From a virus (taxonomy: Duplodnaviria; Heunggongvirae; Uroviricota; Caudoviricetes), in the IMG/VR virus record IMGVR_UViG_2713896904_000009: a DNA stretch of 29,612 nucleotides; one strand, given 5' to 3'. How positions within the stretch are numbered: position 1 is the first letter of the stretch; the number at the start of each line of letters is the position of its first letter. A program made the position numbers and the translations under genes. The notes below the pieces were generated by a model. The model did not search any database and was not told the origin of the DNA. It saw only the letters and a program-made list of their open reading frames with translations. This document shows, in pieces, positions 23,721 to 29,612 of the stretch.

Positions 23721-23990
23721 CTATTTATATTGATCGGCGTTATTACGCAGCTGCTCAATTATTCGGATTTCTTTTTTGTCCTGATTGCACTGCCCTAATG
23801 CTGACAACAAATCAACACTCAGGTCGAGGCTTGCGCCATATGTGAGCGGTTTTGGTATTAGCGGTACAGGAGTTTCAGACGTCAGGCTGGGTGGCAGTGG
23901 TGTCACCGGAACGCTCACGTAAACTGTCCGCGTACTTCCGCAACCGGTCAGCAGCGGCAGCAGGCACAGGACGTGAAGCACAATCATCAT
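23721..23990 (-). CDS. o-spanin Rz1-like lipoprotein (overlapping Rz in another frame)
   Basis: Alternative-frame ORF starting MMIVLHVLCLLPLLTGC (lipobox), Pro-rich mature region; begins inside Rz and extends past its stop. Confidence 0.6.
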   Translation of the reverse strand: MMIVLHVLCLLPLLTGCGSTRTVYVSVPVTPLPPSLTSETPVPLIPKPLTYGASLDLSVDLLSALGQCNQDKKEIRIIEQLRNNADQYK

Positions 23991-24267
23991 CCGCAACAGC
24001 CATTTTGATATCTTCCTGGGTTCTCTGTGACTCCAGTGCGATCTGCTGTTTTGCATGCTGGTTAGCCTCCAGTACTGTATTGACGATTTGCAGTGATTGC
24101 AGGACGTTATTGGTAATGGCAGTTGCCGATTTGGCATTTTGTACAGCCTCATCAGCACGTCTCTTTTCGTGCTGATATTTGCTGTAGTAGTGGTTGGCTG
24201 ACCAGATGAAAGAACTGACGACAGTTAAAAGGAATGCAGCGATAACCAGCTTATAGCTCAACTTCAT
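23875..24267 (-). CDS. i-spanin Rz-like protein
   Basis: 130 aa with N-terminal TM helix (LVIAAFLLTVVSSFIWSANHYY) and coiled-coil periplasmic domain; directly downstream of the endolysin. Confidence 0.8.
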   Translation of the reverse strand: MKLSYKLVIAAFLLTVVSSFIWSANHYYSKYQHEKRRADEAVQNAKSATAITNNVLQSLQIVNTVLEANQHAKQQIALESQRTQEDIKMAVADDDCASRPVPAAAADRLRKYADSLRERSGDTTATQPDV

Positions 24268-24727
24268 TTACCACCCCACCAGCCTCTTTAAATCGGGCAA
24301 TCAGGTCACCGATTTTATGTTCATACTGACCGTAACCTGCACCGGGTAATGAAGCCCATATATTGCTGCAACGGTCGATTGCCTGACGAATATCGCCGCG
24401 ATCAATCATCGGCAAAGCGCCACGCTCTTTAATCTGTTGCAGTGCCACAGCGTCCTGGTTTTTTGGAGAGAAGTCTTTCAGGCCAAGCTGTTTACAGTAA
24501 GCATCCCACCAGCGTGAAAGAATCTGATAACGACCAGCTGCTGTTGATTTAAGTTTCGGGTTTAGTGTGACAAGTTTGCGAGGATGATCGGAGTAATCAG
24601 TGAATAGTTCGCCTCCAACAATAACGTCATAACCGTGGTTACATGTCGGTTGCCGTCCATTATCCGTTCCTTCTGACCATGCCACCATATCGAGGAAAGC
24701 TTTACGCTGGGAATTTAGTACCTGCAT
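24251..24727 (-). CDS. endolysin, lambda R-like lytic transglycosylase
   Basis: 158 aa; NQRKAFLDMVAWSEGTDNGRQ...HGYDVIVGGELFTDYSDHPRKLVTLNPKLKST...RYQ is near-identical to lambda R as I recall it. Confidence 0.95.
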   Translation of the reverse strand: MQVLNSQRKAFLDMVAWSEGTDNGRQPTCNHGYDVIVGGELFTDYSDHPRKLVTLNPKLKSTAAGRYQILSRWWDAYCKQLGLKDFSPKNQDAVALQQIKERGALPMIDRGDIRQAIDRCSNIWASLPGAGYGQYEHKIGDLIARFKEAGGVVNEVEL

Positions 24728-24730
24728 AAA

Positions 24731-25090
24731 TTACTCCTTAGAGCCACCAAACTTGTTACCGATTACTCTCATTGCAGCCCCACGAATTGCATCGACCCCG
24801 ATCAGCCCCACCCCACCACCAATGGCAACAGAAAGCGATTTAGGCCATCCGACATACTCAAGCGCGGATGCAAATGTCAGCGTCAGAGCGCCACAGAGCA
24901 AAATTTCGAGTGTTTTTCGTTTCCAGCCGCCACCACCACCAAAATAGGCAATACGCAAACCAGCCATAACAATCGACATAATCACTGCGCCCAGCGGCGT
25001 ATCTCCACGCCACCAGCTCTGGAACAACTCCAGCCAGTCCGGCCAGGTATTTGGGTTATGAGGCATTTCGTCATCTCTCACCTCGCACAT
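24731..25090 (-). CDS. holin, lambda S family (class I, three TM)
   Basis: 119-aa ORF upstream of the endolysin; LGAVIMSIVMAGLRIAYFGGGGG parallels lambda S [20 protein letters not shown]; two in-frame Met (M1, M9) could give a dual start. Confidence 0.75.
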   Translation of the reverse strand: MCEVRDDEMPHNPNTWPDWLELFQSWWRGDTPLGAVIMSIVMAGLRIAYFGGGGGWKRKTLEILLCGALTLTFASALEYVGWPKSLSVAIGGGVGLIGVDAIRGAAMRVIGNKFGGSKE

Positions 25091-25295: not shown

Positions 25296-25820
25296 ATGGA
25301 GAAATTAATGAAACTATTTATGGTTGATCGCCGAGGAATATACTCAACAGGCGATATCGTTACACCAAAGCAATTCTCCGATATAACTCCTGTTGAAATG
25401 TCATCTCTGGTAGACAAACTTTTTCCGCGCGGGCTTGCTCCACAAGGCGAAGGATACCTCATTAATAATGCGGCAAAAATTTATAATAAAAACGAACTCA
25501 TCGACTGGGGACTTGAGTTTTACCGAAGAGGAGTTTGCCCGCAAAAACCTTCTCGCTATACGTCACTCTTCGCCTGGGGTAACCTGGAGGAGGCTAAACA
25601 TTTTCGACTTACAGACGGAAAACCATCAGATAAAATTTTCATAATACAAACAGATAGTTATCATCGCGGAGATATGTCATTATTAAGAAATGATACATCG
25701 GTATTGGAATTCACCTACAGAATGGAGCTTTACTGGTCAGGAAAAACTTTTAACCCTGATCCAGTCTGGGAATACATTTGTCCGTTACCAGTAACTATCG
25801 GTGAACAAGTCCTTGCTTAA
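25296..25820 (+). CDS. hypothetical protein (antisense moron within the late region)
   Basis: 174-aa ORF; likely start is the second ATG at 25308 (GGAG 8 nt upstream). AT-rich; an imperfect inverted repeat TGGCGATAT...ATATCGCCA-like lies upstream. No motif recognised. Confidence 0.5.
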   Translation: MEKLMKLFMVDRRGIYSTGDIVTPKQFSDITPVEMSSLVDKLFPRGLAPQGEGYLINNAAKIYNKNELIDWGLEFYRRGVCPQKPSRYTSLFAWGNLEEAKHFRLTDGKPSDKIFIIQTDSYHRGDMSLLRNDTSVLEFTYRMELYWSGKTFNPDPVWEYICPLPVTIGEQVLA

Positions 25821-26074
25821 TCCCCTTCATCCCAATAAAGACCTTTCGCGGCACAATGAGGACGGTAAGGATAGCAATAACTTGCTCTGACGTTACCAAC
25901 CAGCGTGCCACTTTCTTTGAATGCCTTATCTCCGTTCTTGAGCTGTGATAAGGCATTTTCAAGCTCAGCTATAGCGACAGCCATGTCTTCGCTTTCTACA
26001 TACAGTGAAAAACCTTTAATGGGTGAACTCATGGTAAGTGGGATCATAGATATTTGATGATGGTGTGAATGCAT
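25817..26074 (-). CDS. hypothetical small protein (His-rich N-terminus), downstream of the DNA methyltransferase
   Basis: About 85 aa from ATG 26074 (strong SD GGGAGG 6 nt upstream; MHSHHHQISMIPL...); stop overlaps the stop of the convergent plus-strand gene. Confidence 0.45.
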   Translation of the reverse strand: MHSHHHQISMIPLTMSSPIKGFSLYVESEDMAVAIAELENALSQLKNGDKAFKESGTLVGNVRASYCYPYRPHCAAKGLYWDEGD

Positions 26075-26124
26075 AAATAGCCTCCCAGTGAAAAAATTAG
26101 CGAATAAAAGCTCTGACACCAGAA

Positions 26125-27177
26125 TTATTTCCCCACCAGTTCACTTACCTCTTTCACCGTCTGGTTAAACCGATCTGACTCAAGCTCAACACCTAACGCC
26201 CGACGCCCCATCGCCATTGCTGCTTTTATTGTGGAACCGGATCCCATAAAGAAATCAGCAACCAGATCGCCTGGTCGACTACTGGCATTGATTATTTGCC
26301 GGAGCATATCCGCAGGCTTCTCACACGGATGTTTACCCGGGTAGAACTGAACGGGTTTATGCGTCCAGACGTCGGTATAAGGCACGGAAACTGATACGGA
26401 GAAATAGCGCCGGAGAGTTTTAAACTCATCCAGCAATTCAGAATATTTGCGATTCAGTGAATCATAAGATGCCACCAGCTGGTGGTGTGGTTGTTCCAGT
26501 TGTTGTTCCTGAAACTTCTCTGCCGCTATACGGGAAAACAGTGCCTGCAACTTCCGGTAGTCAGCCTCATTCGGCAACTGCCACTGACTGGCACCAAACC
26601 AGTGGGAAACCATGTTTTTCTTACCAGTGGCTTCGGCAATCTGTTTTGCCGTTATACCCAGTTCGGCACGAGCATCCCTGAAATACGAAATCAGCGGTGC
26701 CATTATGTGCTGTTTGAGTTGACTTTCTTTTGCCGCATAGCCGTCACTTTTGCCGCGATATGGCCCCTGGTAATGTTCAGCAAACAGAACGCGTTCTGTT
26801 GCGGGAAAATATGCGCGCAGACTTTCTTTATTACACCCGTTCCATCGTCCGGACGGCTTCGCCCAGATAATATGGTTAAGAACGTTGAAACGTTCACGCA
26901 TCATGATCTCGATATCAGATGCGAGGCGATGTCCACAGAACAGGTAAAGGCTTCCGGCAGGTTTCAGCACCCGCCAGAACTGAGCCAGACAGTGGTCCAG
27001 CCACTTCAGGTAATCTTCGTCCCCTTTCCACTGATTGTCCCAGCCGTTGGGTTTCACCTTGAAGTACGGCGGATCGGTAACAATCAGGTCAATGGAATCA
27101 TCAGGCAGGGACTGAATAAAATGCAGGCAATCAGCGTTGATTAAATCAACACTGTTTATTTTTACAGTATTTTTCAT
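26125..27177 (-). CDS. orphan DNA methyltransferase (beta-class N6-adenine or N4-cytosine)
   Basis: 350 aa; motif IV DPPY near the N-terminus (LIVTDPPYF) and motif I FxGSGST near the C-terminus (DFFMGSGSTIKAA). No adjacent restriction endonuclease gene. Confidence 0.85.
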   Translation of the reverse strand: MKNTVKINSVDLINADCLHFIQSLPDDSIDLIVTDPPYFKVKPNGWDNQWKGDEDYLKWLDHCLAQFWRVLKPAGSLYLFCGHRLASDIEIMMRERFNVLNHIIWAKPSGRWNGCNKESLRAYFPATERVLFAEHYQGPYRGKSDGYAAKESQLKQHIMAPLISYFRDARAELGITAKQIAEATGKKNMVSHWFGASQWQLPNEADYRKLQALFSRIAAEKFQEQQLEQPHHQLVASYDSLNRKYSELLDEFKTLRRYFSVSVSVPYTDVWTHKPVQFYPGKHPCEKPADMLRQIINASSRPGDLVADFFMGSGSTIKAAMAMGRRALGVELESDRFNQTVKEVSELVGK

Positions 27178-27225
27178 GGATCAGTAAGCGTAACTCTGGT
27201 AGGCTCACTCTGCTTTTGCGCTAAA

Positions 27226-27245
27226 GCAGTGGGCCGCAGTGGGCC
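27226..27245. repeat. tandem direct repeat 2 x GCAGTGGGCC upstream of the DNA methyltransferase
   Basis: Perfect 10-bp tandem duplication; adjacent hairpin TGCTTT-N6-AAAGCA (27211-27228). Confidence 0.6.
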
Positions 27246-27337
27246 GAGGTTCGCTTGTGACCAGTAAGCATGAGCGAATGGCTGGCAGGTGCTACCAACA
27301 CCCACCAGCCGCCCATTTTCACAGCAGGAAACCGCCA

Positions 27338-27565
27338 TTACTGGCAGCGTCTGAATTTATTCCCGTACCCGCCGTTATCCTTCGCCAGACCCGCCATAAC
27401 TAACTGAGTCAGTATTAACTGGCACCGGGCTTCGCTTACTCCGGTAGTTCTCGTCATCATGCGTGGCGTTACCCACTTGTCAGCAGGTAAGAAATGAAGG
27501 ACTGCAGCGGCGGTTTCTGTCATATCTTGCTGTTTTAGCATGTCTTTTTCCCTTCTGGTTAACAT
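27338..27565 (-). CDS. small putative winged-helix DNA-binding protein
   Basis: 75-aa ORF (alternative start 27541 with SD AAGGG); central segment AVLHFLPADKWVTPRMMTRTTGVSEARCQLILTQLVMAGLA resembles small wHTH regulators of about 70 aa. Confidence 0.4.
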   Translation of the reverse strand: MLTRREKDMLKQQDMTETAAAVLHFLPADKWVTPRMMTRTTGVSEARCQLILTQLVMAGLAKDNGGYGNKFRRCQ

Positions 27566-27661
27566 GACATACCAATAACTCTTGTCTAAAAAGCCAGCAA
27601 GATAAAAAGTCAGTATTCACGACCACCAGCGTGTTTACTGTACTGCACCAGGTTTACAGGT

Positions 27662-27683
27662 ACAAAAAACCGCTCAGCGGCGG
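27662..27683 (-). terminator. terminator-like hairpin (minus strand)
   Basis: Minus-strand CCGC-CGCTGA-GCGG followed by TTTTTTG; short stem. Confidence 0.35.
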
Positions 27684-27805
27684 ATTTAAGTTGTGTGGCG
27701 AAGTAACCACTCTTAACACGATATAATACTTTTTGCGTACGCGTTAGGATTTTTATAAACTATGCGTCCCCATTCTCGCTATCTTTAGTCGGTCCTGGAA
27801 TACAC

Positions 27806-28732
27806 ATGAAAGTTAGAAGCATAGGATTTACAATAAATAACAATAACAAAAACATTAATACCGTTGACGTAATGAATGCTTTTATCAACGCATCAAACAG
27901 AGAACACAGTCGCACAGACTATACTCGTAAAATTCTCATTTCGGATGTGAATGATTTCTATTATGGATTAGTTGTCACATTCAGAAACCAAAAAAAGAAC
28001 TGTAAGTCGCAATTTGTTGATGGTAAATTCCAGCTTAAAATTGAAGATCTTAAAGGAAGTGACAAACTTGCTAATTTCAACTTTTTCTTAATTAAAAAAT
28101 CTAATCTTTCTGGTCTCTATATGTATCACCACGGTTCATGCAGTCTGAACACTCTCTTTTCTCATTTAGAAACAATAAGTAATGAATTTATCAGAAATCA
28201 AAATAAAGAAGAAATAAAAAAACTTGGTGATAAACCAAAACAAAAAGAAGTAACTGCAATAAATAAAAAATACAAAGAAAGACTGACTTTCAGCCTTATG
28301 ACAAATAAAAACAACATTCAGAGTGTTTTATGTCAATTCAAAGAGATTAAAAGGACAAGCTTTAAATTTAATTATATAGATTTTAAAGGTGGACCAATGA
28401 CTGCGCTTGAACAATTTGTTAACACCACCACAATAGATATGAATTTTAATTCTAGCGACAGAACAAAAGTGCAACAACTATCTCAGAATCTTTCAAATAT
28501 TTATAATTCTATGAGTGGAGTTGATAAAGCACAGGTTATTGCAGTAAACCATGCAGGGATAGAAAAAACCATTGATTTTATGAACTGCCCTGTTTTTTTT
28601 GAAACATACGATTTCGATGTAATTGCCGATAAAGTCAATGGATTGACAAACGATAATTATACAACAAACCCTGTTTTTGATATGATAAAAGAAGAAATGC
28701 TGAACGGGACGAATAAAAATGCCTTTATATGA
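27806..28732 (+). CDS. hypothetical soluble protein, component A of a two-gene AT-rich cassette (candidate defence/abortive-infection sensor)
   Basis: 308-aa ORF, very AT-rich and Asn/Lys-rich; preceded by TATAAT at 27722-27727; no Walker A, DxD nucleotidyltransferase or HEPN-like motif seen by eye. Confidence 0.6.
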   Translation: MKVRSIGFTINNNNKNINTVDVMNAFINASNREHSRTDYTRKILISDVNDFYYGLVVTFRNQKKNCKSQFVDGKFQLKIEDLKGSDKLANFNFFLIKKSNLSGLYMYHHGSCSLNTLFSHLETISNEFIRNQNKEEIKKLGDKPKQKEVTAINKKYKERLTFSLMTNKNNIQSVLCQFKEIKRTSFKFNYIDFKGGPMTALEQFVNTTTIDMNFNSSDRTKVQQLSQNLSNIYNSMSGVDKAQVIAVNHAGIEKTIDFMNCPVFFETYDFDVIADKVNGLTNDNYTTNPVFDMIKEEMLNGTNKNAFI

Positions 28733-29267
28733 ATGGCTAATAAATAAAAGATTGAGGTATCAGTACCTTACACTGCTTGCATTCTCGATCCTGGCATTGC
28801 TTGCACTTTACCTATTGTACAGAAACACACCTAAAGTAAGTGTTAACTTTTTTGATTTTTATCATAAAAACTTACGAGGCTATCTCTTCTCCGGTTTTAT
28901 TTCCGTGGGCTCATTTTTATTGAGCCTACATACCTTTGTCATAATAAATTTACGCGATAAGGTTTTTGCAACTCAGGAATATAAGGAAATTTATAGCATT
29001 GCCACTGGTATATCTATTGACAAAATCAATGATAGTGTATTTTATAAACCTTTAGACAATTTATCCTCATTTATTAATACATCAATATTATGTTCTATCA
29101 CAACAGCAATTGCACAGTTCACTATTGGACTTTCAACTAATTTATATGCATGCTTATTTTGCGTATGGCTTGCAATACTAACGGTATTTCTTTTATTACA
29201 TTGCCTCATCATAATCAGACAAAATATTAAAATTTTATTAAAGCAACAGAGAAAAAAAGGGGGGTAA
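28719..29267 (+). CDS. hypothetical four-helix membrane protein, component B of the cassette (candidate membrane effector)
   Basis: 182-aa ORF whose start overlaps the end of component A by 14 nt; four hydrophobic helices (about residues 17-35, 55-78, 124-140, 144-168); basic C-terminus. Confidence 0.6.
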   Translation: MPLYEWLINKRLRYQYLTLLAFSILALLALYLLYRNTPKVSVNFFDFYHKNLRGYLFSGFISVGSFLLSLHTFVIINLRDKVFATQEYKEIYSIATGISIDKINDSVFYKPLDNLSSFINTSILCSITTAIAQFTIGLSTNLYACLFCVWLAILTVFLLLHCLIIIRQNIKILLKQQRKKGG

Positions 29268-29275
29268 TTCCCCCT
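29252..29275. terminator. bidirectional terminator hairpin between the convergent cassette and Q gene
   Basis: AAAAAAA-GGGGG-TAATT-CCCCC; read on the minus strand the hairpin is followed by TTTTTTT, i.e. a strong terminator just downstream of Q. Confidence 0.5.
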
Positions 29276-29279
29276 AATA

Positions 29280-29612
29280 TTACAACATTGAAAGCACACC
29301 ATCCAGAAAACCAAGAGCTGTTTGCAACTCTTTTCTTATTGTCCCATCAGAACACTTCTGCTTCTTTGCAATAGTTCTTAGTGAGATGCCGATAACAAAA
29401 TGAGCAATAACCAACTCATACTCTTCGGGCTTATATTTCCGCAATCGCGCAACACAGCTGTCAATCATGATTCCTTCATCATCATCGCATTGTTGGCGTG
29501 TTTTCTTTCCATGAGGTAGTAAACCTTTAAACCCTGCAGCAACAAGCTGCCAGTCCACACCACTGTTATCTGCTGCAGCCCATGCTCCCCAGCGGTCCAA
29601 TACTTCATACAT
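29280..29612 (-). CDS. late-gene antiterminator Q, phage 21 type (may be truncated at the window edge)
   Basis: 110-aa ORF starting at the window edge; motifs DRWGAWAA, AAGFKGL, QCDDDEG, ARL and CSDG match the Q21-family pattern as I recall it. Confidence 0.7.
   Translation of the reverse strand: MYEVLDRWGAWAAADNSGVDWQLVAAGFKGLLPHGKKTRQQCDDDEGIMIDSCVARLRKYKPEEYELVIAHFVIGISLRTIAKKQKCSDGTIRKELQTALGFLDGVLSML

Follow-up and report, generated by a model that had tools for sequence, protein, structure and literature searches.

A candidate cis-regulatory leader RNA upstream of M.EcoGII-type adenine methyltransferase genes in temperate phages

The enzyme M.EcoGII is in wide use and is a textbook case of a promiscuous phage anti-restriction methylase, and to our knowledge it has not been described how phages keep it silent. 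It is the non-specific adenine methyltransferase of an Escherichia coli O104:H4 prophage and methylates adenines in any context (PMC5778455); it is silent in the lysogen and deleterious when expressed (PMC5778455, PMC12707154). Homologues in Shiga toxin-producing E. coli (STEC) with approximately 93% (92-94%) amino acid similarity to M.EcoGI/GII are listed as predicted non-specific enzymes, and the lysogens that carry them showed no additional methylated motif (PMC6602927). The mom gene of phage Mu likewise encodes a toxic, promiscuous DNA modifier which is silent in lysogens (PMC12707154), and its translation requires the small Com protein, which binds structured mRNA upstream of the mom start (PMC6483171) and melts a stem that occludes this start. 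In Mu-like prophages, Com homologues are also encoded ahead of non-specific adenine methyltransferases of the alpha class, as with the 39-amino acid ComHia, which has cysteines at positions 9, 12, 29 and 32 (PMC3299994). Here we describe an M.EcoGII-type locus in IMG/VR virus record IMGVR_UViG_2713896904_000009, a 29,612-nucleotide (nt) stretch of Caudoviricetes DNA analysed at its full length (the window), in which the methyltransferase gene is preceded by a conserved structured leader and, further upstream, by a small winged-helix gene. Coordinates are those of the window, and features lie on its minus strand unless stated otherwise.

On alignment and profile searches, the methyltransferase gene (26125..27177) is a new copy of the known M.EcoGII-type family. 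The open reading frame (ORF) is intact and encodes a 350-amino acid protein which matches the Pfam domain N6_N4_Mtase (PF01555, E=9e-42, residues 29-341), with DPPY at residues 35-38 and FFMGSGST at residues 309-316, so that in the alignment motif IV comes before motif I. It aligns end to end with M.EcoGII at 281/349 identical residues (81%) with 2 gaps, using a reference sequence that was machine-read from the supplement of PMC11551740 and may contain small errors. PADLOC assigns the protein to MTase_II (E=3.5e-152), PHROGs agree on a type II-like DNA methyltransferase, and the nearest solved structures are ordinary beta-class enzymes, with RsrI, MboIIA and CcrM among the relatives in the PDB. 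These results bear out an earlier sequence-only reading of the window, in which the order of motifs IV and I had been taken to define a beta-class amino-methyltransferase, and place the enzyme among the beta-class N6-adenine DNA methyltransferases of the M.EcoGII/M.EcoGI family. The same reading had seen the gene as a prophage orphan with an anti-restriction role. No restriction partner was found among the neighbouring ORFs, which gave no nuclease, Pfam or PADLOC matches, and the proposed role fits the published traits of the family, M.EcoGII being non-specific, lysogen-silent and toxic (PMC5778455, PMC12707154). The window enzyme thus shares with M.EcoGII/M.EcoGI the beta-class motif order, the length (350 vs 349 amino acids), the 81% identity, the prophage location and the lack of a partner endonuclease (PMC5778455), and is probably also a toxic enzyme that methylates adenines without sequence specificity. 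The locus differs from the published account in what lies upstream, since a term search of the text of the M.EcoGII paper found no discussion of an upstream gene or leader RNA.

The structured leader RNA of the methyltransferase gene

The spacer of approximately 145 nt in front of the methyltransferase gene, which holds both a tandem repeat and a hairpin, is part of a conserved structured leader (27175..27328) that ends at the methyltransferase ATG. Taking one genome per species, 80 loci were collected from Escherichia to Providencia, Photorhabdus and Yersinia, and a search with 27175-27345 found the region just upstream of the methyltransferase start in more than 60 species loci. A profile built from 59 distinct leaders gave 74 nhmmer matches in 543 kb searched on both strands, all in sense orientation and normally one per locus. 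The full-length matches end at the methyltransferase ATG; in Photorhabdus loci just the 5' part of the leader (through helix P1) was matched, and in a Vibrio phage the leader precedes a 38-amino acid ORF, which in turn precedes the methyltransferase gene. The leader was also present in 51/80 IMG/VR loci seeded from the Vibrio enzyme, and a covariance model gave 48 matches in 338 kb, all of them sense and located just upstream of the methyltransferase gene or its preceding small ORF, so that the conservation extends over prophages from Escherichia to Vibrio. No Rfam 15 family matched over the leader at E<=1 in the window and eight related loci, and a full-text literature search pairing EcoGII with regulatory-RNA and leader topics gave no relevant paper among the matches listed. 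On the strength of the sense-only matches and the covariation described below, the leader is a candidate new cis-regulatory RNA family, conserved as a structured RNA of the sense strand and not as a DNA operator. A second, partial copy comprising the P0/P1 part was observed in a Trabulsiella prophage (locus L014, 1524-1583), approximately 800 nt upstream of the full copy.

The predicted fold starts with helix P0, in which an invariant UGGGC (27311-27315) pairs with GCCCA (27240-27244 or 27230-27234), followed by the 12-bp helix P1, which is the hairpin that had been noticed beside the repeat; its arms (27299-27310 with 27280-27291) were recovered with a repeat finder and are conserved with compensatory changes. 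P2 pairs UUCGCU (27273-27278) with AGCGAA (27250-27255), P3 pairs CUGCUUU (27223-27229) with AAAGCAG (27210-27216), and a possible P5 (27203-27209 with 27183-27189) has weaker pairing. In a MAFFT alignment of the leaders (A5), the 3' part can be completed either by P5 or by an extended P3 plus a P4 pseudoknot, with similar figures: 91-92% of the cells are paired, against 30-45% with the partners slid by 1-3 columns, 16-17 pairs have changed on both sides, and there are 81-86 compensatory cells against 16-19 in shuffled alignments, none of the 500 shuffles reaching the observed value. P1 is the main source of this signal, with 9/12 pairs compensatory. In a covariance-model alignment of a broader set, which leans towards the modelled structure, compensatory change was found in 34/36 pairs and the proportion paired was 99% for P0, 85% for P1, 78% for P2, 91% for P3 and 63% for P5, with the P0 variants GGAGC/GCUCC and UGGGG/CCCCA in divergent members; the independent support for the structure is provided by the MAFFT-based counts and their slid controls. 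Folding a single-copy leader for minimum free energy (MFE) gives P0+P1+P2+P3+P5 (z = -3.0), and the conservation of the spacer is RNA-like, with many G-U pairs as well as compensatory changes.

Some of these helices exclude each other: GCCCA(C) can pair in either P0 or the extended P3, the bases before the start codon can pair in either P5 or P4, and each of the competing pairings shows limited covariation. The leader is possibly a two-state element. Shortened leaders were observed approximately 90 nt before the methyltransferase start in Photorhabdus and Xenorhabdus (loci L062-L087), which keep P1 and lack both GCCCA/P3 and UGGGC, and this joint loss is consistent with the P0 pairing. A further observation concerns a GATC (Dam site, 27179-27182) at positions -7 to -4 of the methyltransferase start, within CUGAUCYAUG, which is kept in most full-length A5 leaders and could pair with a conserved GGUCA (27258-27262) to form P4, the covariation consisting only of G-U to A-U changes.

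The perfect tandem repeat next to the hairpin is as real as the sequence-only reading had it, and is peculiar to this phage. Two copies of GCAGTGGGCC (RNA sense GGCCCACUGC) with 100% identity occupy 27226-27245 according to TRF and a repeat finder; this is the sole perfect tandem 10-mer in the window, and since only 5/300 dinucleotide shuffles contain any such repeat, the duplication is unlikely to be noise. In phages Ayreon and mEp460_4F5 and an E. coli prophage, GGCCCACTGC occurs once at the site that has two copies in the window, and two contiguous copies were found in 0/1,051 complete E. coli genomes matched by a 60-nt query across the duplication (the lone '100%' row consisted of two overlapping pieces over 50 bases). 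All 58 other leaders of the species alignment have a single copy, none of more than 100 aligned loci has two, and the exact 20-mer, with one match in the viral collection and 14 in the metagenome collection, was in unrelated contexts in all 15 cases. As every relative examined is single-copy, the tandem repeat is a private duplication and not an operator. The duplication copies the segment that P0 uses as its 3' arm and P3 as its 5' arm, and in the MFE folds P0 is kept in a single-copy relative and lost in the window. The repeat would represent a replication-slippage duplication inside the leader, which may alter regulation but would not define it. A 54-amino acid ORF (27174..27338) with TAATG/ATGA overlaps was considered as a leader peptide or a case of translational coupling and rejected as an artefact of the +10 frameshift caused by the duplication, its frame stopping after approximately 37 codons in relatives.

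Late-operon position and proposed silencing of the methyltransferase

The late region of the window begins with an antiterminator Q gene (29280..29612; PF06530 Phage_antitermQ, E=2e-42, and RefSeq annotation of homologues), the 5' end of which extends beyond the window edge. Downstream of the methyltransferase gene lies a lysis cassette (23721..25090) identified by PF05106, DUF2570, LysC Rz1-like and RefSeq annotation of homologous genes, consisting of a lambda-type holin (24731-25090, PF05106), a lysozyme (24251-24727) and spanins of the Rz/Rz1 type (23875-24267 and 23721-24158; DUF2570 and LysC Rz1-like). Its location between Q and the lysis genes makes the methyltransferase gene a late-operon gene. 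An intrinsic terminator (27663..27681, stem 27669-27681 followed by a U tract), detected in a terminator scan and annotated in phage Ayreon, lies upstream of the small gene and is a candidate late-promoter-proximal (tR'-like) terminator, giving the minus-strand order Q, terminator, winged-helix gene, stop-codon hairpin, ~145-nt leader, methyltransferase gene and lysis genes. Over 26117-27686, identity with phages mEp460, cdtI and Ayreon and with numerous E. coli prophages is 96-97%, and 2,733/5,426 complete E. coli genomes contain cassette-region matches. Annotated relatives have a constant order of Q, a small hypothetical gene, a DNA methylase and further late genes, the latter being lysis genes in most, and three tRNAs with stx2AB in Stx2a phage Stx2_95; the methyltransferase gene in relatives thus abuts holin or tRNA/stx genes. 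Among the 80 species loci a Q homologue was found upstream in at least 44 and lysis genes downstream in at least 53, which are lower bounds as only a handful of query proteins was used. Distant relatives of the small protein are again encoded between Q and a methyltransferase-holin-lysin series, with the Q, holin and lysin families differing, and lysis genes likewise border the genes of distant methyltransferase relatives from Vibrio and Aeromonas phages. Terminators flank the cassette, and its near-universal placement between Q and the lysis genes, with differing Q, holin and lysin families, identifies it as a mobile module heading lambdoid late operons.

The position of the terminator is reminiscent of the lambdoid pR'-tR' short transcripts (lambda 6S RNA and StxS), where a terminator also follows shortly after the Q-associated region and before the first late genes (PMC7547250), and by analogy with these we infer that the terminator at 27663..27681 is tR'-like. 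The segment in the window appears to differ from lambda 6S/StxS in sequence, is much shorter than the 258-nt StxS precursor of Sakai, and has 1.5 kb of foreign DNA between Q and the terminator segment; in view of its length, it is treated as no more than an analogue of StxS. In Stx2_95, a homologue of the block 27690-27740 with its terminator follows Q directly; in the window, block and terminator are separated from Q by 1.5 kb of DNA with a GC content of 28-33% and two plus-strand ORFs. A strong hairpin resembling a terminator (AGGGGG..CCCCCU with a run of U; 29258-29275) was also observed 5 nt past the Q stop codon, overlapping the end of the convergent 182-amino acid ORF of this island, and this implies that in this phage the late promoter cannot sit immediately downstream of Q. 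An extended -10 reading of TGTGAAAAT was tried and fails, as both spacing and sequence vary.

Translation of the methyltransferase appears to be set up in an unusual manner. A Shine-Dalgarno (SD) core (GGAG, GAGG or AGGA at -16 to -4 of the methyltransferase start) is present in only 3/67 distinct leader-bearing loci and no Shine-Dalgarno sequence precedes the window gene, whereas the leaderless Vibrio-type subclade has a canonical AGGAG in 6/6 loci. A conserved upstream ORF ending at an in-frame UGA before the methyltransferase start was searched for and not found. Scanning of the leaders for hairpins identified GCUGCCA-GUAA-UGGCGGU (27331..27348), which covers the small gene's stop codon and has a U/C-rich tract behind it. 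A hairpin is located immediately upstream of the leader in 41/59 leaders, and in 22/41 the 8 nt that come next include 5 or more U; the equivalent of the window hairpin is a strong intrinsic terminator in many relatives. In loci that have the small gene, the stop codon of this gene lies in the loop or the 3' arm of this hairpin, and a terminating ribosome would therefore oppose hairpin formation.

Taken together, we consider it reasonably likely that this late-operon cassette of a lambdoid prophage represents a layered silencing of a toxic late methyltransferase, by terminators and by leader-governed, SD-independent translation. In the lysogen, transcripts would stop at the terminator or terminators and any read-through RNA would be poorly translated, with the leader rather than an SD sequence governing initiation, either by blocking or by enabling it, and the combination of few transcripts and poor translation would keep the toxic enzyme off. 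Upon induction, Q-modified RNA polymerase would read through the terminators, and the methyltransferase, made late, would methylate the adenines of the progeny DNA and so shield it in the next host against many restriction systems. A number of points weigh against this layered-silencing model. It is drawn from sequence; the window orthologue is only 81% identical to M.EcoGII, and its non-specificity is deduced from the family; and the assignment of pR' is based on homology and position only, a sigma-70 scan having located no convincing promoter, either in the leader or ahead of the small gene, and no more sites than in shuffled sequence. In the window, the U tract of the hairpin following the small gene is poor, the covariance-model alignment has the leaning mentioned above, and the 3' part of the leader is ambiguous, with P5 only 63% paired in the broad alignment and the outer part of P3 with P4 fitting about equally well.

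The small winged-helix gene and alternative explanations

The first gene after the terminator at 27663..27681 (27338..27541) encodes a 67-amino acid winged-helix protein of PHROG 331, as judged from its homologues, its substitution pattern, an AlphaFold2 model and the phrog_331 match. A small winged-helix gene had been proposed here from sequence, and while both the ORF and the fold stand, its start does not: the gene starts at ATG 27541 and not at ATG 27565, which is not conserved, whereas the GGGAAAAAGACATG ribosome-binding context is. The 233 homologues are all from Enterobacterales and have invariant MLKQQDMTETA and RCQLILTQL blocks with a hypervariable segment between them. In comparisons with three diverged homologues the ratio of non-synonymous to synonymous substitution (dN/dS) was 0.24-0.35, with dS saturated, and the differences within the conserved blocks are synonymous, a pattern of purifying selection which indicates that the small ORF is translated rather than being an untranslated one. 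The AlphaFold2 model, based on the family alignment, has a predicted local distance difference test (pLDDT) score of 87.6 and an H1-strand-H2-H3-wing topology, and gave generic winged-helix matches in Foldseek at E ~3e-3 (Zalpha, TrmBL2, IclR, Rrf2, MarR and SelB). The best match is Zalpha (1qbj), with a template-modelling (TM) score of 0.85, a root mean square deviation of 1.1, E=3e-3 and 16% identity; inspection of helix 3 (EARCQLILTQLVMAGL) and of the wing (GGYGNKFRR) did not show the residues of what we take to be the Zalpha signature, namely Asn/Tyr in helix 3 and Pro-Pro-x-Trp in the wing. Pfam matches were sub-threshold (TrmB, MarR_2 and DprA_WH), and a PDB profile search with the winged-helix family gave nothing significant. 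PHROG 331, of unknown function, also includes ORF60 of Yersinia phage P840.

The small gene is present in 52/78 informative loci, where it ends approximately 150 nt before the methyltransferase gene, and is lacking in 26/78, with 24 of these 26 loci retaining the spacer and the methyltransferase gene. It was seen only at this position in every locus inspected. The small protein is best described as a frequent but dispensable accessory, which may modulate the leader/methyltransferase step. In a Mangrovibacter prophage (locus L036, 2147-2347) codon 23 of the winged-helix gene is an in-frame stop, which makes this gene a possible pseudogene, with leader and methyltransferase gene intact. Two other loci (L018 and L023, 2058-2297) lack the winged-helix gene and have a 79-amino acid cysteine-rich (CxxC-type) ORF of PHROG 7682 just upstream of the leader.

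From the overall arrangement we infer that the system in the window resembles Mu com-mom more than the controller protein of a restriction-modification system. As in com-mom, a toxic, promiscuous DNA modifier would be lysogen-silent and late, with a gene for a small, putatively nucleic-acid-binding protein upstream and structured mRNA before the start (PMC6483171, PMC12707154). The differences are that the small protein is a winged helix without CxxC pairs, where Com is a zinc finger, and that many loci do without it, that the RNA is a 145-nt multi-helix element instead of one stem-loop, and that transcription appears to depend on Q antitermination rather than on Mu C and Dam/OxyR. The alpha-class enzymes Hin1523, Hia5 and Nma1821 are similarly relaxed-specificity adenine methyltransferases whose late-positioned phage genes follow a small regulator gene (PMC3299994), and differ from the window enzyme in class (alpha vs beta) and phage type, with no leader sequence in common. 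A closer parallel is found in the Vibrio clade, where an ORF of 36-38 amino acids with cysteines at positions 9, 12, 27 and 30 lies between leader and methyltransferase gene (L005 2862-2978; also L088, L100, L124 and L160). This ORF is labelled 'RNA polymerase subunit P' in GenBank, is Com-like in size and cysteine spacing, and has weak matches to the 'translational regulator' PHROG 6417 (E=6e-4) and to Mu Com (E=1e-3); as the Pfam Com model gave only E=0.28, we refer to it as Com-like and not as Com. A 63-amino acid ORF upstream of the leaderless Vibrio-subclade methyltransferases was compared with the winged-helix family using hhalign, and no relationship was found.

That this methyltransferase family works like com-mom is a reasonable hypothesis by analogy, weakened for the winged-helix protein specifically by the 24 loci which keep the leader without it. 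A full version would hold that the leader is a new regulatory RNA class specific to the M.EcoGII-type genes of gamma-proteobacterial temperate phages, forming a two-state switch (P0/P5 vs extended P3/P4) that is read by a phage protein (the winged helix in Enterobacterales, the Com-like zinc finger in Vibrio) for Com/mom-like translational activation; we regard this as tentative and somewhat unlikely. The narrower proposal of a Com/mom-like circuit in which the winged-helix protein itself binds the leader RNA and activates methyltransferase translation is, in our estimation, unlikely. It draws on a gene order (small nucleic-acid-binding protein, structured RNA, toxic DNA modifier) that parallels com-mom (PMC6483171, PMC3299994), on the four-cysteine zinc-finger ORF of the Vibrio clade, on the restriction of the winged-helix gene to this one position, and on the ability of some winged-helix domains to bind RNA hairpins, SelB being among the fold matches; however, the leaders of the 24 loci lacking the gene are like those of the others, the protein has no sequence similarity to Com, and the fold matches are weak and mostly to DNA-binding regulators, which makes RNA binding a supposition. 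Occlusion of the start as in com-mom would suit a leader which ends at a start codon without an SD sequence, yet the pairings that could occlude it (P4/P5) are weakly supported.

The leader could also be a ligand- or signal-sensing RNA (a riboswitch-like two-state element), a ribozyme or a processed stable small RNA, and not a passive translation gate. The invariant single-stranded or junction motifs AAAUGGGCG, GGCCCA and GAGCCUAYCA around the covarying helices, the core fold resembling a three-way junction, and the mutually exclusive sets P0+P5 and outer P3+P4, each with some covariation, would all be in line with this. These alternative pairings are weakly supported though, no similarity to Rfam riboswitches or ribozymes was found at E<=1, the logic of a ligand for a phage late gene is not obvious, and the element always ends at a start codon (that of the methyltransferase gene or of the small Vibrio ORF), which favours a cis role; we therefore consider a sensing or processed RNA to be quite unlikely. 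Orphan methyltransferases often regulate genes, and a site-specific enzyme, or an epigenetic regulator expressed in the lysogen instead of a late anti-restriction enzyme, could be accommodated by the 19% divergence from M.EcoGII, which is located partly in the central region. Such a function is very unlikely given that the homologues with 92-94% similarity are predicted to be non-specific and their lysogens had no extra methylated motif (PMC6602927), and given the conserved late-operon position behind terminators. Finally, the sequence-only reading had suggested that the winged-helix protein is a C-protein-like controller which binds the tandem GCAGTGGGCC repeats and times methyltransferase expression, and although a small protein with a DNA-binding-type fold is encoded immediately upstream, as beside the methyltransferases of C-protein restriction-modification systems, and some databases call the homologues TrmB-family or 'predicted transcriptional regulator' (PMC8456039), this model is largely refuted by the comparative data and extremely improbable, as the repeat is single-copy in every relative and no conserved C-box exists, the protein has no Xre, HTH_3 or HTH_31 match, there is no endonuclease gene to delay, the gene is dispensable in about a third of loci, and the spacer is conserved in the manner of an RNA.

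Neighbouring genes and wider significance

The island between Q and the terminator consists of two overlapping plus-strand ORFs (27806-29267) in opposite orientation to the late operon, encoding a 308-amino acid protein (PHROG 2802, unknown function) and a 182-amino acid hydrophobic protein, without Pfam or PADLOC matches. Phage mEp460_4F5 has just the first ORF of this pair, which resembles a moron and possibly serves in exclusion or defence. Between the methyltransferase and holin genes, 25296-26119 contains convergent ORFs of 174 amino acids (plus strand, PHROG 5663, unknown function) and up to 100 amino acids (minus strand), with a GC content of approximately 41% and no family matches; these are missing from relatives in which the methyltransferase gene abuts the holin gene (such as locus L002). 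Elsewhere, Rfam matches were observed to the SIB RNA (a type I antitoxin) just downstream of the methyltransferase gene in a Hafnia prophage (L066, 3782-3928) and to STnc100 downstream of stx2B in an Stx2a phage (L007, 5757-5971).

The conserved covarying leader RNA is the part of this locus most worth following up. It covaries strongly in more than 100 related loci, with cassette-region matches in about half of the complete E. coli genomes, and is a candidate addition to the known families of cis-regulatory RNA, while the duplication in the window provides a natural mutant of the element. Together with its optional winged-helix partner, the leader offers a concrete and testable mechanism for control of the methyltransferase. 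In those Stx2a phages whose cassette lies between Q and stx2, the leader would be part of the late transcript of the toxin, and could affect the processing or yield of the toxin transcript.

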